A DNA stretch of 64,000 nt from Dehalococcoidia bacterium (GTDB lineage: Bacteria > Chloroflexota > Dehalococcoidia > GIF9 > UBA5629): positions 1,184,747 through 1,248,746 of the forward strand of contig JBAZEK010000001.1 in assembly GCA_041653995.1 (NCBI GenBank), written 5' to 3'. The notes beneath the pieces were generated by a model. It saw only the letters and a program-made list of their open reading frames with translations. It had not been told where the DNA came from and ran no database searches. This document shows, piece after piece, positions 3,748 to 64,000 of the stretch (the first letter of the stretch is position 1; each line of letters begins with the position of its first letter). A program made the position numbers and the translations under genes.

Positions 3748-3760
3748 TCACAGTTACCTT

Positions 3761-5139: not shown

Positions 5140-5221
5140 CTCTTCCACCTGCGGCCTGATTCCGGCTGTTCGTCTCTTTTTGCTTATCACAATCGTCATA
5201 TCAGTACACCATTACCCGTTA

Positions 5222-10831: not shown

Positions 10832-10846
10832 ATCTTCTTTCCCCGC

Positions 10847-11749: not shown

Positions 11750-11759
11750 GAGATTACTT

Positions 11760-12200
11760 CTACTCCTTATCGAGCTCCAGCTCGTCGCCCGCGTATGCGC
11801 TGCGCGGCGATGTTTCGATCCTGTTACGGAAGGCTTCCAGCTCTTTTCTGACCTGCTCCACGCCGCCTTCGCCCGGCTGGATCATGACCATGCGCCCGCG
11901 GCCCAGGCCTATCTCCTCCAGCAGGGCATCCACCGCCTCCACCCGTTTTTGAGCGCGCAGGTTCCCCTCGATATAACGGCAATCACCTTTATTACATGTG
12001 ACCACGGCCACTCCGTCCGCGCCGGTCTCGAAGGACTTGGTCAGGTAGAGGATATCGACCTTACCGGAACACGGCAACGGGATCAGCCTGACCTCAATCC
12101 CCTGCATGCTATCTCCTCCCGACAGCTCGGACGGATCCAGGCTGCTTGAGCAGCAGAAGAGATCGATCTTGACCCTGGCCTTATTTGCTACGTACATTTC
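11760..12200 (-). CDS. mvhD: MvhD/FlpD-like (methyl-viologen-reducing hydrogenase delta subunit family) Fe-S protein. The start was chosen at an internal ATG with an AGGTGG SD.
   Basis: MvhD pattern: KIDLFCCSSS...PCSGKVD...GADGVAVVTCNKGDCRY. Compare MvhD CNWCSY...MCSGRVD...GADGVLVSGCHPGDCHY. Confidence 0.75.
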   Translation of the reverse strand, partial: EMYVANKARVKIDLFCCSSSLDPSELSGGDSMQGIEVRLIPLPCSGKVDILYLTKSFETGADGVAVVTCNKGDCRYIEGNLRAQKRVEAVDALLEEIGLGRGRMVMIQPGEGGVEQVRKELEAFRNRIETSPRSAYAGDELELDKE

Positions 12201-34458: not shown

Positions 34459-34796
34459 CTCGACTGCCCTTCGGGCTATTTTCAGTGGCTCCAGATTTAT
34501 CTCCTCTTTAGTACTATAGTACCGGTTCTATATCTCTATATCTGATTATAGCACAGGGAAGGCGTCCCCGGCAGCAGGGCAACTCATATCCGGGCCATAG
34601 CGTCGTAGTGATGACCACATACGTTTGGGAATGCAAGAAGGTCGGGTTTGACTTTTTCACAATAATTGTCATAATTAACTCAGGCTTATGGCCTTGATCA
34701 ATCAGATGCTGTGCCAATATCAGTGCAAGCGCAAAATATGTTGGCTCTCGATAGTAAAAATTAGGATAGAAAACATCAACGGAGGTTGATTTAATA

Positions 34797-35270
34797 ATGG
34801 TACAGCAGATTAAAGCGGACAAGGATTATACTCTTGTCACGCAGATTATGCAGGTAGCCGACATATTCGTGAAAGTACGGGAGAGGGAATTACTCCCCCA
34901 GAACCTGTCGGCAACCTCGGCCGCCATCCTTTTTCTCGTAGACGCTATGGGGAAAGATGTCACCCCCGCCAGGATTTCCCGCATGCTGCTGCGCGAGCCT
35001 CACTCCATATCCGGCATCCTCATGCGCATGGAAAAGCAGGGCTTGATCAAACGAACCAAGAACATGGAGCGTAAAAACTTGATCCGCATCACCCTGACAG
35101 CAAAGGGAGAAAATGCCCTGAAACAGGCCATGAAAAAAGAGGGGACCAAGCGCGTCCTGTACAAATTGAGTGCAGAACAGCAGAGGCAGCTCAAGGCGAC
35201 TCTGACCATGCTTAAAGAGGCGGGCATGAAGGAGTTACACCTCAGTCCCAAAGCTCTGCCCTGGCCTTAA
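34797..35270 (+). CDS. MarR-family transcriptional regulator
   Basis: Winged-HTH MarR-like core (ISRMLLREPHSISGILMRMEKQGLIKR). Confidence 0.7.
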   Translation: MVQQIKADKDYTLVTQIMQVADIFVKVRERELLPQNLSATSAAILFLVDAMGKDVTPARISRMLLREPHSISGILMRMEKQGLIKRTKNMERKNLIRITLTAKGENALKQAMKKEGTKRVLYKLSAEQQRQLKATLTMLKEAGMKELHLSPKALPWP

Positions 35271-46131: not shown

Positions 46132-46256
46132 TTTCCCTGCTGTTACCTGCCTTGCCTTAAAAGTATAGCTTCAGGTGGTTTTGCAGGCAATTTATTTCGA
46201 TTATAATTACTTTTACCTGCTATTAAAAAATGGCATGTGTCAGGAGGATAGTCGGT

Positions 46257-47948
46257 ATGGCGAAGCAGTTGAAAATCGTGATTATCGGCGGCGGAGCCTG
46301 CGGTCCCAAGACCGCCGCCCGCGCGCGCAGGCTGGATGCATCGGCGCAGATCACTATGGTGCAGGATGAGGAACTGATATCCTACGCCGGCTGCGGATTG
46401 CCGTACTATATCTCCGATGTGGTCAAATCCCGCAACGCCCTCCTGGTACGCGATGCCGCCGCCTTTAAAAAGATCAGCAATGTGGATGTACTGACAGCCA
46501 CCCGTGTGGACCGCATCGACCGGTCCGCACACAGGATAGACGTAACTGCACTGGCCGAGAATCGGCAATATTCCATCGACTATGACAAGCTGGTGATAGC
46601 CACAGGTGCAAATCCGGTGGTTCCACCTATAAAAGGCATCGACTTCAAAGGTGTGCACGTGTTGAAACGCGTCCCTGACGCGGATGAGATAAAGGTCCTC
46701 ATAAATGAGTCGGCCTCTAAAAAGGCCGTTGTTGTAGGCGCCGGACTGATCGGAATTGAGATGGTCGAGGCGCTATCGGCACGCGGATTGAAGGTCAGCG
46801 TGGTCGAGGCGCTGGATAAAGTGCTGCCGGGCATACTGGACGAGGAGATCTCGGACCTGCTGGCCGACCATGTTAGAAGCAAGGGAGTGACTCTCAAGCT
46901 GGGGCAAAAAGTGGTGGAATTCAAGGGTGGTAACAATAGAGTAAGCCATGTCATCACGGACAAGGAGACGCTTGAGGCAGACGTGGTCATCTTCGCCATA
47001 GGCGTGCGCCCGAATTCAAAGCTGGCAAAGGAAGCAGGCCTGGAGATCGGTCCATTCGGCGATGTCGTTGTCAACGAGTATTTGCAGACAAGCGATCCCG
47101 ACATCTATGCCGGCGGCGACTGCGTGGCCAATATCAGCATTGTCACCGGCAAGAAGGCATTCGTGCCCCTGGGCTCCACAGCCAACAAGCACGGGCACGT
47201 GATAGCGGCCAACATCACCGGCGGCAGCGAAAAATTCGCGGGCATCGTAAGCACCGCCTGTGTGAAGGTATTCGACTTCAACACCGGGCGTGTGGGACTG
47301 GGAGAGCAACAGGCGCGTGAAGCAGGTTTCGATGTGGTCACTGCCCTCATACCCAATCCGGATAAGCCGATGTATTACCCCGGCAGCAAGGAGGTCATCA
47401 TCAAGCTCATCGTGGACAGGAAAACCCGACGTATACTGGGCGGGCAGGGCACCGGACCCGGCGATGTCATCAAGCGCATCGATGTGCTGGCCACGGCCAT
47501 CACAGCAGGTATGATAGTAGATACGCTGGCCGACCTGGACCTGGCCTACGCTCCCCCCTACAACACGGCGCTGGATGTCCTCCACCACGCGGCCAACCTT
47601 GTGCGAAATAAGCTGGAGGGAAGGACGACGGGCATCAGATACGCCGAGGTAAAAAAAAAGATAGACGCGGGGCATGATTTCGTACTTCTCGATGTGCGAA
47701 GCAAGTACGAGAGCGATAATACCTGGTTGGAGACACCCCAGGTACATTTATTACCGCAAGCGAGACTGTACGACGAAATGGATAAACTTGACAAGAAAAT
47801 CGAGACAGTGGTCTTCTGCCTGCGGGGCGGACGCGCCTACCAGGCCTGCTGCACACTCAAAGGCGCCGGCTTCAAGGATGTTAAATTCGTTGAGGGAAGC
47901 CTGACCTGCTGGTGCGCCGATGATATTTGCGGCGAGCCCGTGCTCTAA
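46257..47948 (+). CDS. CoA-disulfide reductase / NADH oxidase-family flavoprotein with a C-terminal rhodanese domain
   Basis: KIVIIGGGACGPKTAAR (FAD motif), redox Cys in the N-terminal region (YAGCGLPY), a second Rossmann domain (VVGAGLIGIEM), and a C-terminal rhodanese with the CLRGGRA active-site loop. Confidence 0.8.
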   Translation: MAKQLKIVIIGGGACGPKTAARARRLDASAQITMVQDEELISYAGCGLPYYISDVVKSRNALLVRDAAAFKKISNVDVLTATRVDRIDRSAHRIDVTALAENRQYSIDYDKLVIATGANPVVPPIKGIDFKGVHVLKRVPDADEIKVLINESASKKAVVVGAGLIGIEMVEALSARGLKVSVVEALDKVLPGILDEEISDLLADHVRSKGVTLKLGQKVVEFKGGNNRVSHVITDKETLEADVVIFAIGVRPNSKLAKEAGLEIGPFGDVVVNEYLQTSDPDIYAGGDCVANISIVTGKKAFVPLGSTANKHGHVIAANITGGSEKFAGIVSTACVKVFDFNTGRVGLGEQQAREAGFDVVTALIPNPDKPMYYPGSKEVIIKLIVDRKTRRILGGQGTGPGDVIKRIDVLATAITAGMIVDTLADLDLAYAPPYNTALDVLHHAANLVRNKLEGRTTGIRYAEVKKKIDAGHDFVLLDVRSKYESDNTWLETPQVHLLPQARLYDEMDKLDKKIETVVFCLRGGRAYQACCTLKGAGFKDVKFVEGSLTCWCADDICGEPVL

Positions 47949-50279: not shown

Positions 50280-51968
50280 TTATTTGCCCTTTGCCCGGTC
50301 CTCCTCCTGCAGCACGCGCCGCAGCACCTTGCCCACCATAGTCTTGGGCAGAGCATCGCGGAACTCCACATGCTTGGGCACCTTGTAGGCAGTCAGCTTC
50401 TCACGGCAGAAGACCTGTATCTCCTCGACCGTGCATGATTGGTCTGTTCTCAATACCACCCATGCTTTCACGGCTTCGCCCTGCGCGGCATCTGGCACGC
50501 CGGCCACACCCACCTCGAGCACGGCGGGATGCTGAGCGATGATCTCCTCGATCTCCACCGGGAAGACCTGATGGCCGCTGGGCTTGATCAGGTCCTTCTT
50601 GCGGGATGTTATAAAGAGATATCCGTCCTCATCCAGGTAACCTATATCGCCGGTATACAGCCAGCCATCGCGCAGCATCTCTGCAGTAGCTTCAGGACGG
50701 TTCCAGTAACCCTGCATGATGTGTGGCCCCCTGGCTATGATCTCGCCGGCGTCACCGGCCTGGAGTTCAGTTTTTCCCGTATCTATATCGACTATCTTGA
50801 TGACGGTATCAGGGGTGGGCATGCCAACCGCCCCCTCCTTCCATTTGCCCAGGAACGGACCCATAGCGAGCACGCCCGATTCCGTAAGGCCGTAAGCTTC
50901 CACAATCTTGCCGCCCGTGACCACCTCCCACTGCCGCTTGGTCTCAGGCAGAAGGGGAGCCGCAGCAGCCACCGACGACTTCATGGTCTTGAAATCGATC
51001 TTGCCCGACTTGACCTCGGGCCTGTTCATAAGCCCGATGAAGATGGCCGAGATGGCGGGGAAGAAGGCCGGTTTGACCTTTTTAATCGTGGCCAGAACAT
51101 CCTTTACCTCGCGAGGATTGGGGATAAGAGCCGTGGGATAACGGCCTGCGATGGCTGTAGACAGCAAAATTACATTGCCGTAAACATGGAAGAAAGGCAT
51201 TAGCAACACGAGCACATCCGTCCAATCCGTTGCCAGCGGCTTGGACCAGGAATGTATCTGCCGGCCGTTCATGAATATGGCCTCATGGCTCAGCATCACG
51301 GCTTTGGGCGTGCCCGTCGTGCCGCCACTGAACAGCAGCAGGCCGGTATCTTTACCGCTCACCTTGACGTCAGGTTTCTTATCGCCGGCATGTTTCTTCA
51401 TCAGGTCCTGCAGCCAGATGTCGTTTCCCTGCACCTTTTCCAGATATTGTCCCTGTTTTTTCTCCATCAGCAGAGTGAACATCAGTTTAATAAAAGGCGA
51501 CAGGTATTCTTTGACGCTGGTAACGATAAGCAGTCGCAGCTTGGTGCGTCCCTGGATTTTCTTCACCAGGTCGTAGAATGCAGTCAGCACAATTGCAACT
51601 TCGGCGCCGCATTCCTTGAGCGCAAATTCGAGCTCCGCCTCGCTGTAGAGCGGGTTAACCGGCACGGCGATAGCTCCGGCTTTCCAGATGGCAAGCTGGC
51701 TAATGACTATATTGGGTGAGTTGGGCATCAGCATGACAACGCGGTCGCCCTTCTTAACCCCCTGAGCCGCAAGGCCGGCAGCCAGTATATCGCTCAGGTG
51801 GTCGACTTCCTTGTAGGTCATCCACCTGCCCTTGAACCAGATCATTTTATGCGCGGGCCTCTCCCGGGCAACATCCGCGACGTCTTCGAAAAGCTTCTTA
51901 TCGGGATAGGGTTGTAAAGTTTTGGGTACACCCTTGTCGTAATGCTTGAACCATGGATAGTCTGCCAT
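50280..51968 (-). CDS. Long-chain-fatty-acid--CoA ligase (FadD-like AMP-dependent synthetase), paralog 1 of 7
   Basis: YPWFKHYDKGVP N-terminus, LFSGGTTGTPKAV (AMP motif), YGLTE, TGDIGYLDEDGY, and a C-terminal YKVPKHVEFRDALPKTMVGKVLRRVL matching E. coli FadD. Start at the ATG with a GGAGGAG SD. Confidence 0.85.
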   Translation of the reverse strand: MADYPWFKHYDKGVPKTLQPYPDKKLFEDVADVARERPAHKMIWFKGRWMTYKEVDHLSDILAAGLAAQGVKKGDRVVMLMPNSPNIVISQLAIWKAGAIAVPVNPLYSEAELEFALKECGAEVAIVLTAFYDLVKKIQGRTKLRLLIVTSVKEYLSPFIKLMFTLLMEKKQGQYLEKVQGNDIWLQDLMKKHAGDKKPDVKVSGKDTGLLLFSGGTTGTPKAVMLSHEAIFMNGRQIHSWSKPLATDWTDVLVLLMPFFHVYGNVILLSTAIAGRYPTALIPNPREVKDVLATIKKVKPAFFPAISAIFIGLMNRPEVKSGKIDFKTMKSSVAAAAPLLPETKRQWEVVTGGKIVEAYGLTESGVLAMGPFLGKWKEGAVGMPTPDTVIKIVDIDTGKTELQAGDAGEIIARGPHIMQGYWNRPEATAEMLRDGWLYTGDIGYLDEDGYLFITSRKKDLIKPSGHQVFPVEIEEIIAQHPAVLEVGVAGVPDAAQGEAVKAWVVLRTDQSCTVEEIQVFCREKLTAYKVPKHVEFRDALPKTMVGKVLRRVLQEEDRAKGK

Positions 51969-52013
51969 TAAGATCTCCTCCATTATTTATGTTTATTATT
52001 TATAAGTGTGCTG

Positions 52014-53675
52014 CTACGATGGTTTTTTAGCCTTTTCCTCCTCCTGCAACACCCTCCTCAGTATTTTACCAACGAGTGTCTTGGGCAATGCGTCGCGGAA
52101 CTCGATAAACTTGGGCACCTTGTAGGCTGTTAATTTGTCCTTGCAGAAAGATTGAAGCTCTTCTGCAGAGACATTCTGTCCCGGACGCAGGATCACCCAT
52201 GCCTTAACAGCCTCAACCTGTTTCGGATCCGGTATCCCCGCCACGCAGGCCTCTGCTACAGCGGGATGAGTGGTGAGTATCTCCTCCACTTCCTTCGGCC
52301 AGACCTGGTGGCCGCTGGGCTTGATGAGATCTTTCTTGCGCGAGGTCAGGTAGAGGTAACCGTCCTTGTCCATATAGCCGATGTCACCCGTATACAGCCA
52401 GCCGTCCCTGATCATCTCCGCTGTGCCTTTGGGATTGTTCCAGTAGCCCTGCATGATCTGCGGGCCTTTGCCGACTACCTCGCCTTCCTCGCCGTAAGGT
52501 AACTCCTTATCAGGATCCGCGACATCTACGAATTTAATTATGACATCGGGCAGGGGCAGGCCGACCGCGCCTTCCTTCCATTGACCCTTGAGCGGGCCGA
52601 CAGTAAACACAACTGTGGATTCTGTAAGGCCATAGGCCTCGAGAATGGGGGCGCCCGTCATAGCTTCCCAGCGCTGCTTGGTTTCGACCATCAGCGGTAT
52701 GGCCCCTGAGAGGCAATATTTCAGGCAGGTGAAGTCCACCTTCCCCGCCGCGACTTCAGGGTGCGCCATCAAGCCGATGAACAACGTAGGCACACCGGGC
52801 ATAGAGCCGGGCCGAACCTTCCTGATGGTGTCGATCACGTCATCGAGGTCACGCGGATTGGCCACAACTGCCAGCGGGCTGCGAACACAGAGGGAACTGG
52901 CGATAACCCCGTTAAAGCCATAGGCATGGAACAGGGGCATGAGCGCCATCGTGTAGTCGTCGTGAGTTATCAGGCCCTGTTTGTTCCAACTATTGGTCTG
53001 AAGGCCGACCGCCGCCATGTTCCTGAAGGAAAGCATAGCGCCCTTGGGAGCACCGGTTGTTCCGCCGCTGAACAAAATGATAGCGGTATCATCCATCCTG
53101 GGTTTTACAACAGGAGCGGGATCCTTGGCGTGTTTGTCCATGAACTCGTCCATCCACACATCGCCCTTCTCAAGCTGCACGGTATGCGGCTTCTTTGCTT
53201 CCGGAAGCATGTAGTCTTCGAGCGAGGTGGCGATAACCTTTTTCAGCTTGGTGCGCGACTGTACCTTCTTGATATTTGCATACAGCAGGTCCCAGACAAT
53301 GATTATCTCCGCATCTACAGTGGTCAGCGCATGTACCAGTTCATCCTCGTTATACAAAGGATTAAGCGGAACAAAAATGGCGCCGGCCTTCATAGTGCCG
53401 AAGGCGGCTATAAGCTGCTGAGGTGTATTGAGTAACATGGTGGCCACGCGGTCTCCCTGCTTCACGCCGTTGGCGATCAGCGCCGAAGCCATTATCTCGA
53501 AAAGCCTGCTTGCCTCCTTGTAAGAGAAATACCTTCCCTTGAAATACATGAATGTGTGATCCGGCATCTCGCGGGTTGTGTCCGCTATGACATCAAGTAA
53601 AGTGATTTCCGGATATGGCGCCAGGGAATGGGGCACCCCTGCATCGTAAGATTTGTACCATGGATAATCCGCCAC
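52014..53675 (-). CDS. FadD-like acyl-CoA synthetase, paralog 2
   Basis: Same motif set (LFSGGTTGAPKG, YGLTE, TGDIGYMDKDGY, GKILRRVL). GTG start preceded by GAGGAGG. Confidence 0.8.
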   Translation of the reverse strand: MADYPWYKSYDAGVPHSLAPYPEITLLDVIADTTREMPDHTFMYFKGRYFSYKEASRLFEIMASALIANGVKQGDRVATMLLNTPQQLIAAFGTMKAGAIFVPLNPLYNEDELVHALTTVDAEIIIVWDLLYANIKKVQSRTKLKKVIATSLEDYMLPEAKKPHTVQLEKGDVWMDEFMDKHAKDPAPVVKPRMDDTAIILFSGGTTGAPKGAMLSFRNMAAVGLQTNSWNKQGLITHDDYTMALMPLFHAYGFNGVIASSLCVRSPLAVVANPRDLDDVIDTIRKVRPGSMPGVPTLFIGLMAHPEVAAGKVDFTCLKYCLSGAIPLMVETKQRWEAMTGAPILEAYGLTESTVVFTVGPLKGQWKEGAVGLPLPDVIIKFVDVADPDKELPYGEEGEVVGKGPQIMQGYWNNPKGTAEMIRDGWLYTGDIGYMDKDGYLYLTSRKKDLIKPSGHQVWPKEVEEILTTHPAVAEACVAGIPDPKQVEAVKAWVILRPGQNVSAEELQSFCKDKLTAYKVPKFIEFRDALPKTLVGKILRRVLQEEEKAKKPS

Positions 53676-53763
53676 TTTAAACCTCCTCAAACAATATTTA
53701 CGGCATATTTTAAACGCGCTGCTAATTATACTAAATTAACCGGGCGCTCTATATCCCCGACTT

Positions 53764-55407
53764 TTACTTGCTTTTCTCCTCATCCTGTAGAATTCTACGC
53801 AGTACCTTACCCACGAATGTTTTGGGCAGCTCTTTACGGAACTCGAAGTGCTTGGGAACTTTGTAGCCGGTGAGTTTCTCCCTGCAATATTTCTGCAATT
53901 CCTCTGCAGTCACGCTTTTCCCCTCTTTCAGCACGACCCAGGCCTTGACGGCTTCCATCTGTCTGGGATCAGGTATCCCGCCCACACATACTTCAGCCAC
54001 GGCCGGATGCTCCTGGAGAATCTCTTCCACCTCACGCGGCCAGACCTGGAAGCCACCGCATTTTATCAGGTCCTTCTTGCGAGACGTCAGAAAGATATAG
54101 CCATCCTCATCCATGTAGCCGATATCGCCGGTGTAAAGCCAGCCGTCCCGCAGAATCTCTTTGGTCTCTTCCGGCCGTTTCCAATAGCCCTGCATGAGCT
54201 GCGGCGCCTTGATAATAATCTCTCCCGGCTGCCCGACAGGCATACCTGAAGACCCGCTGTCTATATCAACGATACGTACAATGGTATCCGGCAGGGGCAG
54301 GCCTATGGAGCCCTCCTTCCATTTACCCTTGGCAGGAGTGGTAAGCATGGCCATGCCGCTCTCAGTGAGTGCGTAACCCTCGGTCAACCGGCCGCTGATA
54401 TGCTTCTCGAACTGCTCCTTGGTCTCACGCATCAGCGGCGCTGCGCCCGATGTAGCCATGCGAATGGTTTTGAGATCACCCATTTTGAGATCCGGATATT
54501 CCAGCATGGAGATGAACATGGTGGGAGCGGCCCCCATATTAGTAATACCTTGATTCTTAATAGTTTCAATCATGCCCTTGATATCACGCGGATTGGCGAT
54601 GAGCACCGAGATATTATGCTGAACCAGCGCCATCCCGAAGCTGGCATAGATGCCGAAAGCATGGAAGAGCGGCAGAGGCACAAGGAATTTTTCGTCCCAC
54701 CAGAGTGAAATCTCGCGGAACCAGGCCTCCACCTGCATACCTGTGATCACCAGGGACTTATGGCTCTCCATAACACCCTTGGGAGTGCCCGTGGTGCCTC
54801 CCGAGAACAGGATCAAGGCTGTATCGTCCGGCGCCACTTTTACGCCGGGGACCGGTTTTCCTGCATATTTCCTGCTAAGGTCGAGCCACCAGTCGTCGCC
54901 TGGCTCAATAGCGGTCGCCGCCTTCTCTTTATTCGGCACGGTGTAATCATCGAATTCAGCCAGGATAACGTTGCGTACGCTGGTTTTCTTCTGCAGCCTT
55001 TTGACCATGGGATACCACAGGTTTAGCACCACCGCTGTTTCAGCATCGATATCATTTAACCTCGCTTCCAGTTCGAACTCGGTGTAGAGTGGATTGAGCG
55101 GCACCACAATAGCGCCCAGCTTCCAGGCCGCGAAGAAAATAATATACTCCTGGGGGCAGTTAAGGAAGAGCACGGCTATGCGGTCACCCTTCTTCACACC
55201 CATGGAAGCCAGCGCCGCAGCCATAGCATCGCTCTCACTGACGATCTCTTTATAGCTGAGCTTCCTGTCCTGGAAGATGATCATGGGATAATCAGGACGC
55301 TCGTTTTTAGCTTCCAGCAAGACATCCATAATGGTCTTACGGGGGTATGGCTCAAGAGAGCGGGGTACGCCGGGATCATAGCTTTTGTACCATAGATGTT
55401 CGGTCAA
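53764..55407 (-). CDS. FadD-like acyl-CoA synthetase, paralog 3
   Basis: LFSGGTTGTPKGV, YALTE, TGDIGYMDEDGY, GKVLRRIL. TTG start with a GAAGGA SD. Confidence 0.8.
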   Translation of the reverse strand: MTEHLWYKSYDPGVPRSLEPYPRKTIMDVLLEAKNERPDYPMIIFQDRKLSYKEIVSESDAMAAALASMGVKKGDRIAVLFLNCPQEYIIFFAAWKLGAIVVPLNPLYTEFELEARLNDIDAETAVVLNLWYPMVKRLQKKTSVRNVILAEFDDYTVPNKEKAATAIEPGDDWWLDLSRKYAGKPVPGVKVAPDDTALILFSGGTTGTPKGVMESHKSLVITGMQVEAWFREISLWWDEKFLVPLPLFHAFGIYASFGMALVQHNISVLIANPRDIKGMIETIKNQGITNMGAAPTMFISMLEYPDLKMGDLKTIRMATSGAAPLMRETKEQFEKHISGRLTEGYALTESGMAMLTTPAKGKWKEGSIGLPLPDTIVRIVDIDSGSSGMPVGQPGEIIIKAPQLMQGYWKRPEETKEILRDGWLYTGDIGYMDEDGYIFLTSRKKDLIKCGGFQVWPREVEEILQEHPAVAEVCVGGIPDPRQMEAVKAWVVLKEGKSVTAEELQKYCREKLTGYKVPKHFEFRKELPKTFVGKVLRRILQDEEKSK

Positions 55408-55421
55408 CTCAGCATCCTTCA

Positions 55422-55451
55422 GACCGGTCCCGGCAGCCGCCGGGACCGGTC
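55422..55451. terminator. Perfect 13-bp GC-rich stem-loop (GACCGGTCCCGGC...GCCGGGACCGGTC) between paralogs 4 and 3, flanked by an A/T-rich tract
   Basis: Read directly. On the plus strand it is followed by TTCATTATTTTT. On the minus strand it follows the paralog-4 stop. Confidence 0.45.
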
Positions 55452-55482
55452 TTCATTATTTTTAAAATTTAAAAATAACCTG

Positions 55483-57171
55483 CTATTTTGCTTTGGCTTT
55501 CTCCTCCTCCACCAGTACCCTTCTCAGCACCTTGCCCACCATAGTTTTGGGCAACTCGGTTCGGAACTCGACAAATTTAGGTATCTTGTAGGCCACCAGC
55601 TTCTCCTTGCACCAGGCCTGTATCTCCTCCGCTGTAGCGGTCTTGCCCGCCTCCATCACCACCCAGGCCTTAACCGCCTCACCCTGCTTGGCATCAGGTA
55701 TGCCGGCCACGCAGGCTTCGGCCACATCAGGATGTGCAGCTATGACTTCCTCGACCTCCCGCGGCCATACCTGGAAACCGCTGGGCTTGATCAGGTCCTT
55801 TTTACGCGAGGTGATGAAAAGATAACCATCCTCATCCAGATACCCGATATCGCCGGTGTAGAGCCAGCCATCCCGCAGCATCTCCTTGGTCTCCTCAGGC
55901 CTGTTCCAGTATCCCACCATGAGCTGCGGCGCCTTAATAACTATTTCGCCTTCCTGTCCGGCGGGTAAATCGCCCTCACCCGTCTCCAAATCGCCGATCC
56001 TGGCAATCACATCGGGCAGCGGCATGCCGGTGGAACCCTCCTTCCATTTGCCCAGGTAAGGTGTAACGCAGGAGGCCATGGTAGCCTCGGTCATGGCATA
56101 GCCTTCGACTATCCGGCCGCCCGTCAATTCCTCAAAGCGTCTCTTGGTATCGGCCAGCAGCGGAGCGGCGCCGGACACACAGAACTTCATCGATTTGAAA
56201 TCGACTTTCCCGGCTTTGACCTTGGGATGCTCCAGCAGAGCAATATAAAGGGCGGGAACTGCCGGGAAGAAAGTCGGTTTATCATGTTGAATAGTAGCTA
56301 TCAAATCTTCGCGGTCGCGAGGATTGGGAACGAGGGACAATGTCACATGGCATACTATGGCGGTGCTCATAACACCATAGGTCGCGTATACATGGAAAAG
56401 CGGCAGGCAGGCCATGATGACATCCTTGTAGCTCTCGATCATGCCACCGAACCACGCAGCATACTGCAGGGCTGTTATCACCATGGAATGATGCGTGCCT
56501 ACCACGCCCTTGGGGGTGCCCGTGGTGCCGCCGCTGAACAGTATGAGTGCAGGATCCTGCGGTGCAACCTTCACATCCGGCCGCCCGGCGCCGGCATACT
56601 GCTTGATCAGGTCCGTCATCCACAAATCTCCCTGCTCCAGTTCTACATAGTGACCTTCCTTTTTCTCCTTGACCAGCGTGAACAACACCTTAAGCACCGG
56701 CGGGAGGTAATCCTTGATGCTGGTAGCTATGACCAGCTTTACGCTGGTGCGCGGCTGTATCTTCTTAAACTGCTTGTAGAACATGGTCAGAACGACTACA
56801 GTCCCAGCCCCGCAATCTTTGAGGGCGTGCTCCAGCTCGCTTTCCGTATACATGGGATTTAAATGCACCAGTATGGCGCCGACCTTCCAGGCCCCCCAGC
56901 GGCAGATAAGCGCCTGCGGGCAGTTGGGCATGAGAAGCGCGACCCTGTCGCCTTTCTTGACGCCTTTGGCAGCCAGGGCAGCCGCGAATTCATCGCTCAG
57001 CTTCTGAAACTCAGCATAGGATATCTTCCTCTTCTTGAAAAGCATCATGGGATAGTCGGGTTTCTCTTTGACTGCCTCATCCACGTAATCTATGAGGGTT
57101 TTCTGGGGATATGGTTCCAGTGTGTGGGGTACACCGGGATCGTAATTCTTTAACCAGCGATATTCTGCCAT
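55483..57171 (-). CDS. FadD-like acyl-CoA synthetase, paralog 4
   Basis: MAEYRWLKNYDPGVP..., LFSGGTTGTPKGV, YAMTE, TGDIGYLDEDGY, GKVLRRVL. ATG with a GGAGG SD at -8. Confidence 0.85.
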   Translation of the reverse strand: MAEYRWLKNYDPGVPHTLEPYPQKTLIDYVDEAVKEKPDYPMMLFKKRKISYAEFQKLSDEFAAALAAKGVKKGDRVALLMPNCPQALICRWGAWKVGAILVHLNPMYTESELEHALKDCGAGTVVVLTMFYKQFKKIQPRTSVKLVIATSIKDYLPPVLKVLFTLVKEKKEGHYVELEQGDLWMTDLIKQYAGAGRPDVKVAPQDPALILFSGGTTGTPKGVVGTHHSMVITALQYAAWFGGMIESYKDVIMACLPLFHVYATYGVMSTAIVCHVTLSLVPNPRDREDLIATIQHDKPTFFPAVPALYIALLEHPKVKAGKVDFKSMKFCVSGAAPLLADTKRRFEELTGGRIVEGYAMTEATMASCVTPYLGKWKEGSTGMPLPDVIARIGDLETGEGDLPAGQEGEIVIKAPQLMVGYWNRPEETKEMLRDGWLYTGDIGYLDEDGYLFITSRKKDLIKPSGFQVWPREVEEVIAAHPDVAEACVAGIPDAKQGEAVKAWVVMEAGKTATAEEIQAWCKEKLVAYKIPKFVEFRTELPKTMVGKVLRRVLVEEEKAKAK

Positions 57172-57221
57172 GCAATCAACCTCCAAATCAATATATTCTA
57201 ATGCCGTGACTATATGTTTAA

Positions 57222-57251
57222 GCAGTCCCCGGCTGTGCAGCCGGGGACTGC
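57222..57251 (-). terminator. Perfect 13-bp stem-loop (GCAGTCCCCGGCT-GTGC-AGCCGGGGACTGC) just downstream of the paralog-5 stop
   Basis: Read directly. Followed on the minus strand by UUAAACAUAUAG. Confidence 0.45.
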
Positions 57252-57264
57252 CTCGTTCACAGAC

Positions 57265-58956
57265 TTACTTCTTGCTTTTTGACGCCTCTTCCTCCTGCAG
57301 AACCCTTCTCAGCACCTTGCCGACCATTGTCTTGGGCAGGTCGCTGCGGAACTCCACGAACTTGGGTATCTTGTAGGCGACCAGCTTCTCCTTGCACCAG
57401 GCCTGTATCTCCTCCGCCGTAGCCGTCTTACCGGCCTCCAGCACTACCCAGGCTTTCACAGCTTCACCCTGCTTGGCATCGGGAATACCGGCCACGCTGA
57501 CTTCCGCCACCGCTGGATGGCTGCTGATTACCTCCTCGACTTCCCTCGGCCATACCTGGAAGCCGCTGGGCTTGATCAGGTCCTTTTTACGCGATGTGAT
57601 GAAAACGTAACCGTCATCATCCATATAACCTACATCGCCCGTATAGAGACAGCCGTCACGCAGCATCTCTTTAGTCTCCTCAGGCCGGTTCCAGTACCCC
57701 TTCATCAGCTGCGGGGCCTGGAAAACGATCTCCCCCTCCTTGCCGGCTGGCATATCGCCTTCGCCGGTCTCAATGTCGCCGATCCTGATTATGACGTCCG
57801 GGAGCGGCATCCCCACAGACCCCTGCTTCCAGGTTCCGCGATAAGGCGTGCAGCAGCAGGCCATGGTAGACTCGGTCAACCCGTAGCCCTCAACGATACG
57901 GCCGCCGGTGAGGTCTTCGAAACGCTTCTTTGTCTCGTACAGCAACGGGGCTGCGCCGGAGTTGCAGCATTTCATTGAGCTGAAATCCACCTTACCTGTT
58001 TTGACTGCCGGATGCTCCAGCAACGCTATGAACATGGCAGGCACGGCGGGGAAGAACGAGGGCTTATCATGATTGATGGTAGCGACCACATCGTCGCGGT
58101 CGCGGGGATTGGGTACCAGAGACATCGCCGCATGCCCGACGATGGCCGTGCTCATGACCGCATACGTGGCGAACGAGTGGAAAAGCGGCAGCACCAGCAT
58201 CATCACATCTTTGTAAGGTTCGACTATCTCACCGAACCAGCTGCTGAATTGCAGACCTGTGATTACCTGCGAATGGTGCGTGCCCACTACACCCTTGGGT
58301 GTGCCTGTCGTCCCGCCGGAGAAAAGAATGAGGGCGTCGTCGCCCGGCAGCACTTTCACGTCGGGCCGTTTGGCTCCGGCCTGGGCTTTAATCAGGTCGG
58401 TCAGCCAGAAATCGCCGGGCTGCAACACGATGCGATGGCCTTCCTTTTTCTCTTTGACCAGTGTAAATAGAACCTTGAGTACGGGCGGAAGGTAATCCTT
58501 GATGCTGGTCGCTATAATCAGCTTCAGTTTGGTCCTCGACTGTAATTTCTTAACTGTATTGTAGAACAGGGTCAGCACCACTACAGTCTCTGCGCCGCAG
58601 TCCTTAAGGGCATGTTCGAGTTCGGACTCTGTATACATGGGGTTCATATGTACCAGGATAGCGCCCGCTTTCCAAGCGCCCCAACGGCAGATAATGGCTT
58701 GCGGGCAATTAGGCATGATCAGGGCTACGCGGTCTCCCTTTTTTACGCCTTTGGCTACCAGCGCAGCCGCAAATTCATCGCTGAGCTTCTGTATCTCAGC
58801 ATAGGACATCTTCCTCTTCTTAAAAAGAACCATGGGGTAATCGGGATGTTCTCTCACGGCATCATCCACATAATCTACAAGCGTCTTCTGGGGATAGGGT
58901 TCCAGCGTGGCCGGGACCCCTTTGTCATAGTTTTTTAACCATCTTTTGTCGGACAA
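57265..58956 (-). CDS. FadD-like acyl-CoA synthetase, paralog 5 (about 85% identical to paralog 4)
   Basis: MSDKRWLKNYDKGVP and the same motifs. TTG start with an AAGGAGG SD at -8. Confidence 0.85.
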   Translation of the reverse strand: MSDKRWLKNYDKGVPATLEPYPQKTLVDYVDDAVREHPDYPMVLFKKRKMSYAEIQKLSDEFAAALVAKGVKKGDRVALIMPNCPQAIICRWGAWKAGAILVHMNPMYTESELEHALKDCGAETVVVLTLFYNTVKKLQSRTKLKLIIATSIKDYLPPVLKVLFTLVKEKKEGHRIVLQPGDFWLTDLIKAQAGAKRPDVKVLPGDDALILFSGGTTGTPKGVVGTHHSQVITGLQFSSWFGEIVEPYKDVMMLVLPLFHSFATYAVMSTAIVGHAAMSLVPNPRDRDDVVATINHDKPSFFPAVPAMFIALLEHPAVKTGKVDFSSMKCCNSGAAPLLYETKKRFEDLTGGRIVEGYGLTESTMACCCTPYRGTWKQGSVGMPLPDVIIRIGDIETGEGDMPAGKEGEIVFQAPQLMKGYWNRPEETKEMLRDGCLYTGDVGYMDDDGYVFITSRKKDLIKPSGFQVWPREVEEVISSHPAVAEVSVAGIPDAKQGEAVKAWVVLEAGKTATAEEIQAWCKEKLVAYKIPKFVEFRSDLPKTMVGKVLRRVLQEEEASKSKK

Positions 58957-59019
58957 GATAAGAACCTCCTTAGATTTGTTATTATGATTAAGCTTTCAAC
59001 GCCTAATTACCTCGAAGTA

Positions 59020-60720
59020 CTACTTCGCCGCTTTTTGCCTTGCTATTTCCTCCTCAACCAGTACACGTTTCAGGATCTTGCCCACCAGTGTCTTGGGTAA
59101 CTCGGCCCTGAATTCCACGTGCTTGGGCACTTTATAGGCTGTTAGTTTCTCACGGCAATGCGCCTGTATCTCTTCAGCTGTCGCGGTCTCCCCCTGACGC
59201 AGCACGACCCAGGCCTTGACAGCCTCGACCTGGTAAGCGTCGGGGATACCCGCCACTCCTACTTCCGCTACCTTTGGATAGGTGCTGATACATTCCTCTA
59301 CCTCGCGCGGCCAGACCTGGAAGCCGCCGGGCTTGATCAATTCCTTCTTGCGCGACGTGATGAAGAGGCAACCTTCCTCGTTGAGATAGCCGATATCACC
59401 CGTGTACAGCCAACCATCGCGAATCATCTCCGCCGTGGCCTCCGGCCTGTTCCAGTAACCCACCATGATCTGCGGGCACCTGGCAACGATCTCACCCTCC
59501 GTCCCCAGCGGCATGTCTTTCTCACCGGTCTCAACGTCAACTATTCGCAGAATAACGTCCGGCAGGGGAATGCCGGCCGATCCGGGCGTCCACTTGCCCT
59601 CCACCGGGCCCAGGGTAATGGCCGCGGTCACCTCGGTCATGCCATAGCCCTCGATCAGCTTGCCGCCTGTCAATTCCTCAAAACGCCGCTTGGTCTCAGG
59701 CAGCAGCGGCGCCGCAGACGCCACGCAGAGCTTCATAGATTTAAAATCAACCTTGCCCGCCTTTACAAGCTTATGCTCCAGCAGTGCAATGAACATTGTA
59801 GGGACGGCAGGGAAGTATGCAGGTTTCACCTTGTTTATGGTCTTCACCACATCGTCACGATCTCGCGGGTTGGGGACAACTGCAAGTGTATTATGCCCCA
59901 TGATGGATGTGCCCATCACCCCGGCAAATCCATAAACATGGAAGAGCGGCATGATCATCATAACCACATCATCCCATTCCGTCAGAACACTATCGTTCCA
60001 GACCTTGAGCTGCCAGGCCTCTGCAACCAGGCATTTATGTGTGATGATTACACCCTTGGGAACGCCGGTAGTGCCTCCACTGAAAAGCAGCAGCGCAATA
60101 TCTTCGGATACAGGCTTGTGGTCAGGAATAGCATCACCGGCGTGCTTGCTCATGAGCTCGGCCATCCAGAGGTCGCCTGGCTGGAGAGTAATTCGGTGGC
60201 CTTCCTTCTTCTCCTTGAGCAGCGTAAACATAGTCGCAAGGAACGGCGGAAGATATTCCTTGATATTGGTGGCAATGACCAGCCTGAGATTTGTCTGCGG
60301 TTGTATCTTCTTGACCGTGGCATAAAAAGGTGTCAACACGATGGCAACCTCGGCCCCGCATTCCTTAATCGAGTGCTGTAATTCATGCTCGGTATACATC
60401 GGATTGAGCGGCACAGGTATAGCGCCGGCCTTCCAGGCTGCAAACGAGCTGATAAAGCCCTGCGGGCAGTTGGGCAGGAGTACGGCAACGCGGTCGCCTT
60501 TCTTAACTCCGTTAGCCTTGAGGGCAGCGGCAAACACCGAATAGAGCCTCACGAGCTCGCTGTAGCTGATGTTCCTGTCTTTGAAAATCATGAACCTGTG
60601 ATCGGGCCTCTTCTTGGCGGCCTCCTCAACCACGTCTAAAAAGGTGACCTGCGGGTATGGTTCCAGGCTGTGCGGCACCCCCGCATCATAGCTTTTAAAC
60701 CACTGATATGATTCTGTCAT
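59020..60720 (-). CDS. FadD-like acyl-CoA synthetase, paralog 6
   Basis: LFSGGTTGVPKGV, YGMTE, TGDIGYLNEEGC, GKILKRVL. ATG with a GGGAGG SD. Confidence 0.8.
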   Translation of the reverse strand: MTESYQWFKSYDAGVPHSLEPYPQVTFLDVVEEAAKKRPDHRFMIFKDRNISYSELVRLYSVFAAALKANGVKKGDRVAVLLPNCPQGFISSFAAWKAGAIPVPLNPMYTEHELQHSIKECGAEVAIVLTPFYATVKKIQPQTNLRLVIATNIKEYLPPFLATMFTLLKEKKEGHRITLQPGDLWMAELMSKHAGDAIPDHKPVSEDIALLLFSGGTTGVPKGVIITHKCLVAEAWQLKVWNDSVLTEWDDVVMMIMPLFHVYGFAGVMGTSIMGHNTLAVVPNPRDRDDVVKTINKVKPAYFPAVPTMFIALLEHKLVKAGKVDFKSMKLCVASAAPLLPETKRRFEELTGGKLIEGYGMTEVTAAITLGPVEGKWTPGSAGIPLPDVILRIVDVETGEKDMPLGTEGEIVARCPQIMVGYWNRPEATAEMIRDGWLYTGDIGYLNEEGCLFITSRKKELIKPGGFQVWPREVEECISTYPKVAEVGVAGIPDAYQVEAVKAWVVLRQGETATAEEIQAHCREKLTAYKVPKHVEFRAELPKTLVGKILKRVLVEEEIARQKAAK

Positions 60721-60756
60721 CAATTCAACCTCCCTGCATAATTATTACTGTGGCAG

Positions 60757-62463
60757 CTATGTGTGATTGGTTTCCCCTCCCTGTTTGCTTGTCTCTTCCT
60801 CGATCAATACCCTCCTCAGAATCTTGCCTATCTGGGTTTTAGGCAGATTAGTTTTAAACTCGATATATCGCGGCACCTTATAGGCCGACAGTTTGGATTT
60901 GCAGTGCTCCCTGAGCTCCTCCGCCGTACAGGTCATTCCTGCATTCAGCACCACCCACGCCTTCACTGCTTCGCCCTGGTACTGATCGGGCACTCCGGCC
61001 ACACTGGCCTCCATAACCGCCGGGTGCTCATGTAATATCTCCTCTACCTCGCGCGGCCAGACTTGAAAGCCGCTGGTCTTGATTATATCTTTCTTGCGGC
61101 TGTGCAAGAAGAGGTGACCATCGTTGTCCAGATAACCAATATCACCGGTATAAAGCCATCCATCCCTGAGCATATCGGCCGTTTCCTGCGGTCGCTTCCA
61201 GTAGCCCGCCATAAGATTCGGCGCCTTAAAACATATCTCGCCGAGCTCGCCGGCTTTCATATCGCCGCGGCCGGTCTCGGAATCCACTATCTTAATGACG
61301 ACATCGGGCAACGGCATGCCAACCGAGCCTTCCTTATTAACGCCCATAATAGGATTGAGCGTTGCGGCCTGCATGGTCTCCGTCATGGCATAGCCTTCCA
61401 GGAGCCGTCCGCCTGTCATATTCTCAAACTGTTTCTTCGTATCCGCCATAAGCGGGGCTGCACCCACAATGCATATCTTCATGCCCGACAGCTTTACCTT
61501 GCCCGATTTCACCAGAGGATGATTCATAATCGCGATATAAAACGTAGGAACGCCGGGCATGAAGGCCGGCTTATACTTTTGGATACTTTTAACCACATCG
61601 GTGACATCGCGTGGATTCGGGATAAGGATGCAGGAAGAACGGTTGATCATAGCCGTGCCCAGCGCGCCCGCACATCCAAAAACATGGAAGAGCGGCATAG
61701 TCAGGGCCACCCTGTCCTCCCATTTCTCCAGTACAGGACCGAGCCAGGCGTTAATCTGCATTGCAGTCATTATGAGGGCGCCGTGAGTACCCACGGCGCC
61801 CTTGGGAGTGCCGGTTGTACCACCGCTGAAAAGTATCACGGCCGCATCCTCCGGCCTGACTTCAATATCAGGCCTGGGATCGTTCTTATGTTGTCGCAGC
61901 AGCTCCTGAAACCACACATCCCCCTTTTGCAGGGAAATCCTGTAGCCCTCCTTCTTCTCCCTGGCCAGCGTGAAAAGCAGACCGAGATGCGCCGGCAGAT
62001 ATTCCTTGATACTGGTGGCGATAACGGTCCGGATAGTGGTATCGGCCTGAATATTCTTCACAGCCTGGTAAAAAGGATTAAGCACGATCACAGCAGAGGC
62101 GTCCACCTCGGTCAACGCATGCTTCAGCTCGTGTTCGGTATAAAGAGGATTGATAGGGACCGCTATTGCCCCTGCCTTCCAGATGCCCTGGAATGCCAGT
62201 ACCATCTGCGGTGAATTGGGAAGGAGCAGGGCTACACGCTCCCCCTTTTTTATTCCGAGAGCAACCAGGCCTGCGGCCAGGGCGTCGCTCTGCCGCACAA
62301 AGTCGTGATATAGAAGCCTGTGTCCTTTGAAATAGAACATGGCGCGGTAGGGTTTTGCTTTAGCCGACTCATCGACCACCTCGATCATGGTCGTTCCTGG
62401 ATAAGGCATAAGTGTGCGAGGCACACCTTCATCATAATTCTTAAACCAGGGGTAGTTATCCAT
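60757..62463 (-). CDS. FadD-like acyl-CoA synthetase, paralog 7 (first in the transcription direction)
   Basis: MDNYPWFKNYDEGVP, LFSGGTTGTPKGA, YAMTE, TGDIGYLDNDGH, GKILRRVL. Confidence 0.8.
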   Translation of the reverse strand: MDNYPWFKNYDEGVPRTLMPYPGTTMIEVVDESAKAKPYRAMFYFKGHRLLYHDFVRQSDALAAGLVALGIKKGERVALLLPNSPQMVLAFQGIWKAGAIAVPINPLYTEHELKHALTEVDASAVIVLNPFYQAVKNIQADTTIRTVIATSIKEYLPAHLGLLFTLAREKKEGYRISLQKGDVWFQELLRQHKNDPRPDIEVRPEDAAVILFSGGTTGTPKGAVGTHGALIMTAMQINAWLGPVLEKWEDRVALTMPLFHVFGCAGALGTAMINRSSCILIPNPRDVTDVVKSIQKYKPAFMPGVPTFYIAIMNHPLVKSGKVKLSGMKICIVGAAPLMADTKKQFENMTGGRLLEGYAMTETMQAATLNPIMGVNKEGSVGMPLPDVVIKIVDSETGRGDMKAGELGEICFKAPNLMAGYWKRPQETADMLRDGWLYTGDIGYLDNDGHLFLHSRKKDIIKTSGFQVWPREVEEILHEHPAVMEASVAGVPDQYQGEAVKAWVVLNAGMTCTAEELREHCKSKLSAYKVPRYIEFKTNLPKTQIGKILRRVLIEEETSKQGGETNHT

Positions 62464-62509
62464 TTCGACTCCGATCCGCATCATCAGCGGGCGAGGTGTT
62501 CCCGTTTAT

Positions 62510-62561
62510 GGTCAATCGTTAATTGACCGGTCAATTTTAACATAGTTACTCGTAAAGTCAA
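62510..62561 (-). promoter_or_regulatory. Candidate sigma70 promoter (minus strand: TTGACT-N16-TAAAAT). The predicted +1 falls inside a perfect 12-bp palindrome TTGACCGGTCAA (62523-62534), with further GTCAA half-sites nearby.
   Basis: Hexamers and palindrome read directly. Located about 60 nt upstream of the paralog-7 ATG, in the only sizable gap upstream of the ligase array. Confidence 0.5.
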
Positions 62562-62606
62562 ATTTGATAGCAGCATGGCAACGCGTTTGACAATCCGTAT
62601 GTCTAC

Positions 62607-63659
62607 TTATTTGGATACCGACTGCTGGCGCAATTGCCCGCAGGCCGCCTGTATGCCCGCGCCCTTTTGTTCCCGCTGTGTCACAGTTATACCGGATTGC
62701 TCAAGCACGCGGCGGAAAGACATGATGACAGACGCCTCGGGCTGCCTGTAATCGCTTCCCGGAACCTGGTTGAATGGAATGAGGTTTACATGGCAGTTCA
62801 GCCCTTTGAGCAGTGAGGACAGCGCGGCCGCCTCAGCAGGGCTGTCGTTAATCCCTTTGAGCAGGCAATACTCGAAGGTTACACGCCGGCCGGTATGGTT
62901 GCTGTAATGGTGGCAGGCTGCGATTATATCCTTCAGCAGGTAGCGCGACATACCCGGCACCAGCTTTCTGCGCAATCCGTCTGCGGCGGCATGCAGCGAG
63001 ACAGCCAGCGTAAGTTGCAGCCGCTCAGCGGCCAGACGGTATATGCCGGGAACATAACCGATCGTGCTCACTGTTATATTGCGCATCCCGACCTTGAGTT
63101 CATCGTTGATCAGGCGCACAGCAGCCAGTGTAGCATCGTAATTGAGCAGCGGCTCTCCCATTCCCATGAAGACAACGTGGCTGACCCTTCCGTCCGCAGC
63201 AAGTATCTTTTTACGTACGGCGGCCTCGCCCACGGTTAAAACCTGATCGACCATTTCACCCGCCGCAAGATTGCGTTTGAAACCTCCGGCGCCCGTGGCG
63301 CAGAATGCGCAACCGACCGGGCATCCGACCTGAGTGGATATACAGCAGGAGAATCGTTCCTCGTAAGACATGCCCACGGTCTCCACCAGCTCGCCGTAGT
63401 AAGGCGACAGCAGCAGCTTGTACGTGCCGTCCCTGCCTGTGCTGATCTCCTTGACAGAGGATCTCCCGACCGCCCACAACTGGTCCAGTTTTATCCTGAA
63501 CGGGACCGGGAGATCGGTCATGTCATTGACCTGCCGGCATCCGCGCCTGTAAATCCAATCGGCCACCTGTTTGCCGCGGAATTTCTTCTCCCCGAGTTCG
63601 GCCGCCAACTCTTTCAACTGGTCGCCATTAAGACCCAGTAACATTTTTTTCGACATCAT
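62607..63659 (-). CDS. rlmN: 23S rRNA/tRNA (adenine-C2)-methyltransferase RlmN (radical SAM)
   Basis: CAFCATG radical-SAM cluster motif. RlmN-like N-terminus (GKQVADWIYRRG) and C-terminal Cys (GIQAACGQL). Confidence 0.85.
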   Translation of the reverse strand: MMSKKMLLGLNGDQLKELAAELGEKKFRGKQVADWIYRRGCRQVNDMTDLPVPFRIKLDQLWAVGRSSVKEISTGRDGTYKLLLSPYYGELVETVGMSYEERFSCCISTQVGCPVGCAFCATGAGGFKRNLAAGEMVDQVLTVGEAAVRKKILAADGRVSHVVFMGMGEPLLNYDATLAAVRLINDELKVGMRNITVSTIGYVPGIYRLAAERLQLTLAVSLHAAADGLRRKLVPGMSRYLLKDIIAACHHYSNHTGRRVTFEYCLLKGINDSPAEAAALSSLLKGLNCHVNLIPFNQVPGSDYRQPEASVIMSFRRVLEQSGITVTQREQKGAGIQAACGQLRQQSVSK

Positions 63660-64000
63660 GTCTCTCCCTGACTACAACATTATGTAGCACCGTCAAGCAG
63701 GCTGCAAGCCGGGCTCAATACAGTTTGACCACCCCGCTTATTAGTAGTAGCATGAAATTGTGGGGCAGTCAGACAGAGTAGCCCCAAGGGAGGTCGGAAA
63801 TGGTCAAGAAACAGGCCATGTACGTAGAATGGCACTTTCCTCGAGAGTGCTCTCCCCTGCCGGAGGAGCAGAGATAGACTGCGGACGTGCAAAAGGGGAG
63901 AGCCAGTAAAACTCCTGAGCTCTCCGTTAAGTAGCAAAAAGGCTACGAAATATCAAGGATAAGGCACAGTATTGAGGCTTACCTCTGTGGGAGAGTAGGG

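Follow-up and report, generated by a model that had tools for sequence, protein, structure and literature searches.

A conserved dyad on the promoter of a seven-gene ligase array in a Dehalococcoidia bacterium as a putative repressor operator

Is the palindrome that lies on the promoter of a long array of FadD-like acyl-CoA ligase genes in a Dehalococcoidia bacterium the operator of a repressor? The question arises at a single gap, between rlmN and the first of seven tandem ligase genes, in a 64,000-nucleotide stretch of contig JBAZEK010000001.1 (assembly GCA_041653995.1), which is referred to here as the window. The plus strand around the site reads ...GGTCAATCGTTAATTGACCGGTCAATTTTAACATAG..., within which TTGACCGGTCAA is a perfect 12-bp palindrome that extends to a perfect palindrome of 16 bp (Table 1). 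On the minus strand, the ligase promoter combines TTGACT, a spacer of 16 nt and TAAAAT, a sigma-70-type architecture that matches the consensus at 10 of 12 positions and additionally features the TG of an extended -10 element. It is the top promoter-like site within 49.9-64 kb of the window and is directly adjoined by the palindrome, the final T of the -10 hexamer being at the same time the first T of the 12-bp dyad core. From the promoter spacing, transcription is predicted to start at the centre of the dyad. A sequence-only reading of this DNA had pointed out the promoter, the 12-bp palindrome and a start within it; the first two are borne out, the palindrome being longer than described, and the third is retained as a prediction. 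The size and symmetry of the site are those expected of an operator (a dyad-symmetric site of ~12-20 bp), as is its position, which overlaps the -10 hexamer and spans the predicted +1. When TTGACC was instead read as the -35 of a second promoter, downstream or on the plus strand, no conserved and suitably spaced -10 was seen in the alignments, which were inspected by eye.

Conservation of the dyad among relatives

The analysis of conservation covered ~20 orthologous rlmN-ligase junctions from Dehalococcoidia metagenome-assembled genomes (MAGs), with ligase identities of 61-98%. A scan of a genome collection with ligase 1, whose nearest genome records are Dehalococcoidia/Chloroflexota MAGs, provided a close set of 15-16 gaps from ~15 MAGs (77-98% ligase identity), and a protein search added a distant set of five loci from four lineages (L143-L147; 61-73%). 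Among the close gaps, the invariant columns cluster in the -35 TTGAC, the TG, TA.AA(T), TTGACC, TC.AT and AA, and the flanks diverge. The -35 TTGAC is invariant throughout the 15-16 close gaps, with TTGACA or TTGCAA in its place in the distant lineages, and TG and TAnAAT are retained by all orthologues. The distant gaps can be aligned to the window only at the promoter and at TTGRCC/RRYCAA (the slash marks the dyad centre), where L143 reads TTGGCCAGTCAA, L144 TTGACCAATCAG, L146 TTGACCAATCAA and L147 TTGGCCGGCCAA. Summarised as TTGRCCRRYCAATYAA across 11 lineage variants, the dyad has a majority-base fraction of 0.89 among the 11 lineage representatives, compared with 0.84 for the next five bases and 0.46-0.57 for the flanks, and its distance to the -10 hexamer is 0-1 nt in all lineages. 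No other block of the rlmN-ligase gap is conserved as well as the dyad, even where ligase identity has fallen to 61%, and the dyad is kept well above the surrounding non-coding DNA; phylogenetic footprinting shows that it is under selection.

The substitutions themselves follow the symmetry. L147 carries TTGGCC/GGCCAA, in which an A to G change in the left arm relative to the window is accompanied by a T to C change at the mirror position, so that a perfect 12-bp palindrome is formed again, and L143 (TTGGCC/AGTCAA) represents a one-sided intermediate of this change. The L147 junction is orthologous, as its upstream gene was identified as rlmN by BLASTP. Among 16 close sequences, the outer TTGA/TCAA is nearly invariant and the centre of the right arm variable (GG, AG or AA), and mirror positions are complementary in 89% of cases across 16 orthologues. 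Fixed outer bases around a variable centre are the pattern that would be expected of a dimer reading two major grooves ~10 bp apart.

Table 1. Features of the rlmN-ligase gap and its surroundings, in positions of the window
Feature	Position	Strand	Remarks
Dyad, proposed operator	62521-62536	none	Perfect 16-bp palindrome AATTGACC/GGTCAATT; conserved 12-bp core TTGACC/GGTCAA at 62523-62534
-35 hexamer TTGACT of the ligase-operon promoter	62556-62561	minus	From promoter scan
Extended -10 TGtTAAAAT	62534-62542	minus	TG at 62542-62541, hexamer TAAAAT at 62539-62534
Predicted transcription start (G)	62527-62528	minus	6-7 nt past the -10, at the dyad centre; deduced from promoter spacing
Predicted 5' untranslated region (~64 nt)	62464-62526	minus	Shine-Dalgarno GGAG at 62472-62469 before ATG 62463
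Third half-site GGTCAAT	62510-62516	none	Inverted repeat with 62522-62528, 5-nt spacer
Seven tandem FadD-like long-chain-fatty-acid-CoA ligase genes	50280-62463	minus	AMP-binding and AMP-binding_C; gaps of 30-78 bp
rlmN, radical-SAM 23S rRNA/tRNA methyltransferase	62607-63659	minus	RlmN_N and Radical_SAM; co-directional upstream neighbour
MarR-family gene	34797-35270		Only recognisable transcription-factor gene among the window open reading frames scanned (Pfam)

A proposed mechanism and its alternatives

The position, symmetry and conservation of the dyad argue, with moderate confidence on our part, for its being the operator of a dimeric helix-turn-helix repressor that acts negatively on the ligase operon. 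In the mechanism we propose, this repressor would be encoded elsewhere in the genome and bind TTGACC/GGTCAA, which extends from about -7 to +5 in the sigma-70-type promoter that heads the seven-gene operon. Once bound, it would block RNA polymerase binding, open-complex formation or escape, and it would perhaps stop read-through from rlmN as well, in the manner of a roadblock. Release, and with it expression of the operon, would follow when the repressor binds its ligand, for which a fatty acid or an acyl-CoA produced by the ligases themselves is the most plausible choice. The transcription start, the protein binding, the repression, the ligand and the family of the regulator are what we infer in this scheme, and the assignments of repressor family and acyl-CoA ligand are conjecture.

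The sequence-only reading had recognised the geometry of a repressor operator, and this geometry stands, with a footprint-conserved dyad over the -10 and +1 of a strong ligase-operon promoter. Several observations weigh against the operator interpretation. As the sequence-only reading had also noted, no regulator gene is adjacent, and none linked to the site was found on the source contig or at ~25 related loci. A search of 313 kb from this genome and related ones gave no second copy of the dyad (TTGRCNNGYCAA in a promoter context, one mismatch allowed), and the sequence searched shows neither the additional sites of a regulon or of autoregulation nor the enrichment of the palindrome on which the earlier reading had made its proposal depend. 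The known TetR sites with the same half-site, to which we return below, have 2-6 more bases between their half-sites. Conservation is lower in the right arm (centre GG, AG or AA, with TCGA and TCAG variants) than in the left, so that strict dyad symmetry is confined to part of the clade. In addition, the invariant left arm sits in the discriminator, and its conservation could therefore partly serve the promoter.

This last point leads to the alternative of an element that is intrinsic to the promoter or serves something other than repression, namely a discriminator, an initially transcribed sequence, a promoter-proximal pause signal, or a site for an activator or nucleoid protein. It would be in keeping with the left arm, between -10 and +1, being the most invariant part, with the unvarying placement of the element 0-1 nt from the -10, and with the fact that neither a regulator nor a second site turned up in the loci searched. 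We nevertheless regard it as unlikely, as discriminators and initially transcribed regions are not normally dyad-symmetric, contact with RNA polymerase leaves the symmetric change in L147 and the near-invariant TTGA/TCAA unexplained, and the dyad is found on no other promoter-like site in the window; for an activator, a site centred on +1 would be atypical. A chance palindrome without function has a different appeal. Taken by itself, without its position or conservation, the dyad sequence is not significant: in the window, 30 perfect palindromes have arms of 6 nt or longer, and in five of them the arms reach at least 8 nt (~1.1 in shuffles), the exact 12-mer and the looser TTGA-N4-TCAA each occur once against 0.6-1.9 expected, and the exact 16-mer is present in more than 100 unrelated metagenome contigs. 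It is the location on a promoter and the conservation, not the rarity of the sequence, that make the dyad significant. A chance origin is very unlikely, and we give it next to no weight, since the dyad is the best-kept block of the gap across lineages whose non-coding flanks cannot be aligned, its spacing to the -10 is constant and one lineage carries a symmetric substitution. The idea that the conservation is an artefact of recent transfer is countered by the span of ligase identities (61-98%) and by the differing flanks.

Selection might also act at the level of the RNA. Together with the third half-site (Table 1), the dyad region could form, in mRNA sense, a 5'-terminal hairpin GGUCAAUU-AAC-GAUUGACC, which on this view would make the ligase transcript more stable or tune its translation and would leave the palindrome as a by-product. 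In the window this hairpin begins exactly at the predicted +1 and reaches -9.1 kcal/mol alone (z = -3.85), and three single substitutions (in L002, L016 and L004) are wobble-compatible in mRNA sense. Against this, no pair shows compensatory double changes, covariation is below that of shuffled alignments (480 of 500 shuffles score as high or higher), half of the sequences break the outer two pairs, and the hairpin has neither an Rfam family match nor a U-tract of terminator type. The half-site on which it depends is conserved in the window-type clade, weakly so in L009-L013, and absent from L010, L011 and L143-L147. L009-L013 form the hairpin weakly or not at all (-2.4 kcal/mol), and L010, L011, L143, L144, L146 and L147, all of which keep the dyad, lack it. 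Moreover, transcription from the predicted start would leave out the best-conserved arm, TTGACC, which lies upstream of it. Because the hairpin lacks covariation, is absent from lineages that keep the dyad and would not include the best-kept arm, we conclude from the comparison that the DNA dyad, not the hairpin, is the selected feature, and the RNA-level explanation has only a slim prospect. The hairpin is a clade-specific extra, possibly an auxiliary half-site or a local mRNA-stability feature. The three additional half-sites described by the sequence-only reading fared unequally: the one at 62511 is real and conserved in part of the clade, the one at 62557 is the -35 hexamer, and the one at 62587 is conserved in the closest relatives only.

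If the dyad is an operator, as we favour, one regulator lies within the window itself. The MarR-family gene was singled out before as the only regulator present, which holds for the open reading frames scanned, and MarR proteins bind promoter-overlapping palindromes. That this protein is the cognate regulator of the dyad is nonetheless highly improbable, as its gene is 27 kb away among housekeeping genes and the repeat upstream of it differs. MarR proteins are usually autoregulated via the same operator, and no TTGAC-type dyad is present there within two mismatches. The palindrome that does lie upstream of the gene, ACAATAATTGT (34659-34669), is unrelated to the TTGACC dyad and is plausible as an autoregulatory site of MarR.

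The search for a regulator and comparison with known operators

Exact and degenerate motif searches were run over the window, the extension of the source contig and all related loci. Among the open reading frames scanned within 74 kb of the source genome, none matched TetR_N, and the region upstream of rlmN contains no linked regulator in 11 close loci or in more distant orthologues. An ArsR/HTH_5 gene in L147 was considered as a candidate for the cognate regulator and rejected on account of its own inverted repeat, which is of unrelated sequence. This repeat (L147 2380-2415) is perfect, has 10-bp arms (ATTTAGCAAT-N6-ATTGCTAAAT) and sits in the promoter region that serves a DsrE/ArsR(HTH_5)/TusA cluster, beside the single ligase of that lineage; it is probably the operator of the ArsR-type regulator itself.

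A metagenome-wide scan for the 16-mer AATTGACCGGTCAATT returned at least 119 loci. Five are orthologous among the matches listed, and the others listed come from unrelated taxa and contexts, with 27-72% G+C. We inspected the recurrent families of such matches, namely L035/L100, the L064 group, the L070 group and L033/L131, and found no fatty-acid or regulator genes near L035/L100 or L033/L131. In the last pair, two unrelated low-G+C contigs, the site (L033 11776-11791 and L131 532-547) has the geometry seen in the window, with TTGACC, 17 nt and a TATAAT directly fused to TGACCGGTCAATT, and L033 has no open reading frames of at least 80 aa around it; the resemblance may be coincidental, or the operator word may serve an unrelated purpose there. 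In L070, L071, L087, L102, L126 and L137, ~90 nt are conserved around the 16-mer despite very different G+C (...GCGCCAGCATGTAACGT-AATTGACCGGTCAATT-TAATGAGG...GGTCGCTGGAGGTTCTTCATGTCTGATAGGAGCT), a sequence that looks like the end of a mobile element.

A literature search gave no match to the exact dyad, and shorter words from it led to papers on TetR-family regulators of Thermus. Half-sites of the TGACC/GGTCA type are used by the TetR-family proteins RutR, SbtR and PfmR (PMC2475637, PMC7022988, PMC4948773), and the PfmR and SbtR sites overlap the core promoters and +1 of fatty-acid genes (PMC7022988, PMC4948773). The palindromes of Thermus thermophilus PfmR (TTHB023), SbtR (TTHA0167) and FadR (TTHA0101), for example TGACCGGTCA upstream of TTHA1316 or ATGACCGGTCAGTCAG among the PfmR sites, resemble the dyad in their half-sites and in overlapping the -35, -10 and +1 of fatty-acid and phenylacetate genes, including a gene related to acyl-CoA ligases (PMC7022988, PMC4948773). 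They differ in their arrangement: the SbtR consensus TGACYrnnyRGTCA places six bases between TGAC and GTCA, where the dyad has two between TTGAC and GTCAA, and the PfmR register is centred elsewhere. The Thermus regulators are also usually encoded in or near their own regulon, whereas none is linked here. The RutR box of Escherichia coli, TTGACCAnnTGGTCAA, comes closest in its half-site, which is the identical TTGACC/GGTCAA in the same inverted orientation (PMC2475637), but it has four extra central bases (A-nn-T), and RutR controls pyrimidine catabolism and has many intragenic sites. The inverted TGACC/GGTCA half-site of the RutR and SbtR type is thus present without the matching spacing, and L144 alone offers a TTGAC-N6-GTCAA reading. 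With respect to position, the site resembles those of the QacR type, in which the operator is centred on the start site and not on the -35, a comparison also drawn in PMC7022988; the QacR operator is, however, a long 28-bp repeat bound by two dimers, and the core here measures 12-16 bp. By analogy, the site would work like a TetR-type operator yet fits none of the RutR, SbtR or PfmR boxes, because its half-sites are closer together by the 2-6 bases mentioned above. Provided that the site is an operator, a TetR-family regulator has somewhat less than an even chance of being its partner, and we put this family forward tentatively.

In terms of function, the nearest analogue would be FadR at the fadD promoter of E. 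coli. There, FadR, a GntR-family protein, represses fadD from its operators until the acyl-CoA product of FadD releases it (PMC3460868), so that an acyl-CoA ligase gene is under a promoter operator with the product of the ligase as inducer (PMC3460868), the same logic as the one we propose here. The differences are that no FadR or GntR gene was found here, that the host belongs to the Chloroflexota and that the target is an array of seven paralogues. The sites themselves bear no resemblance, the E. coli FadR site being of the TGGTC-N-GACCA type and the dyad reading GACC/GGTC.

Gene context and a structured RNA candidate upstream of rlmN

The seven ligase genes look like a single operon, given the short gaps between them (Table 1) and the fact that a scan of these gaps revealed neither an internal promoter of greater strength nor a minus-strand terminator carrying a T-run. 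Their top NCBIfam matches are long-chain-fatty-acid-CoA ligases, all under the equivalog cut-offs. No minus-strand terminator-like site, and hence no Rho-independent terminator for rlmN, was found in 62485-62606, the sole call there being a plus-strand one that is antisense to rlmN and the ligase gene alike. For the first ligase gene, ATG 62463 is more likely to be the start than the in-frame ATG 62484 upstream, as judged from GGAGTCGAAATG, which is conserved in relatives where ATG 62484 is not. The former start gives a protein of 568 aa with the N-terminus MDNYPWFKNY behind a conserved GGAG-N5-ATG, and the latter, which is the public call and that of the mechanical open reading frame, one of 575 aa. 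With the start at ATG 62463, the rlmN-ligase gap measures 143 bp and not 120 bp as first described. The paralogous arrays in L014 and L018 were considered as possible sources of another promoter for a first gene, and both matches proved to be internal array genes.

The rlmN-ligase synteny is maintained in all relatives examined, down to 61% ligase identity, with arrays that range from 1 to 7 or more paralogues; beyond rlmN, the distant loci carry arsenic-resistance genes in place of a glycyl-radical enzyme cluster. In L144 and L147, as in the window (at 46230-47948), the array is followed by a gene of the Pyr_redox/rhodanese type (CoA-disulfide-reductase-like). Within the array, the 75-bp gap between ligase genes 4 and 5 contains a perfect hairpin with a 14-bp stem, AGACCGGTCCCGGC-(4)-GCCGGGACCGGTCT (55421-55452). 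It is not a terminator, because no T-run follows it on the coding strand, and it may be an intercistronic processing or stability element. The word GACCGGTC from the dyad core occurs four times in the window against 0.8 expected; we treat this excess as a coincidence, as two of the copies are the two arms of this hairpin and relatives do not conserve the word at these places.

The rlmN protein occurs on a 1.28-Mb metagenome contig of the JGI (3300037067, Ga0378408_0000002), and past the end of the window this source contig continues (L001 1-9567) with a cluster co-directional with rlmN and the ligases, which comprises an eighth AMP-binding ligase, an NMO-family protein, an enoyl-CoA hydratase, an 881-aa FAD/ferredoxin-reductase fusion, a 790-aa glycyl radical enzyme and its activase. 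The 790-aa enzyme belongs to the PFL2/glycerol-dehydratase family and lies under all equivalog cut-offs, and the order enzyme-activase-rlmN-ligase is retained in many relatives. At the other end of the window, positions 1-12000 have 61-63% G+C, compared with 50-58% elsewhere in the window, and hold a 1395-aa open reading frame running off the window start together with other large ones.

The gap upstream of rlmN is ~430 bp long and contains a conserved block of ~330 nt (63672-64000, minus strand, running off the window end; L001 9633-9988). This block is present in all Dehalococcoidia lineages examined, whatever the upstream gene (nhmmer E-values of 1e-59 to 1e-116); its neighbours are rlmN on one side and, on the other, the activase of the glycyl radical enzyme or other genes. 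In L013, where another gene has inserted before rlmN, it stays beside the activase, so that it is not simply an rlmN leader. It folds into multiple helices, with G.U pairs favouring the rlmN strand. In a fold of 10 sequences (alignment A4), 94% of the cells are paired, against 43-52% in slid controls, and double changes are seen in seven pairs (2.7 ± 1.3 in shuffles); a fold of 15 sequences (alignment A5) includes pairs such as CG:10/UA:5 and CG:5/AU:5/UG:4. The block has no Rfam family match and no tRNA or tmRNA call, and an overlapping open reading frame (63680-63937) has no Pfam match. We regard the block as a candidate for a new structured RNA. One may further imagine a clade-specific, unlinked regulator with essentially one target, which would gate the array at the anciently fixed rlmN-ligase junction, with the junction and the ~330-nt RNA forming a single regulatory module, for example one in which the operator is a controlled roadblock deciding on read-through from rlmN into the ligases; we offer this as a long shot.

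As a kind of element, an operator on a promoter is ordinary and its mechanism that of the textbook, here in an unstudied lineage, and the RNA-like element beside rlmN may offer a more original lead. No Dehalococcoidia of this type are in culture, and next to nothing is known of how such bacteria control their carbon catabolism. The ligase promoter provides an example of sigma-70-type architecture for the annotation of these MAGs, and the footprinted promoter with its putative operator before a seven-gene ligase array would serve as a bait of ~30 bp that leads toward the regulator, its ligand and the substrates that these organisms sense.

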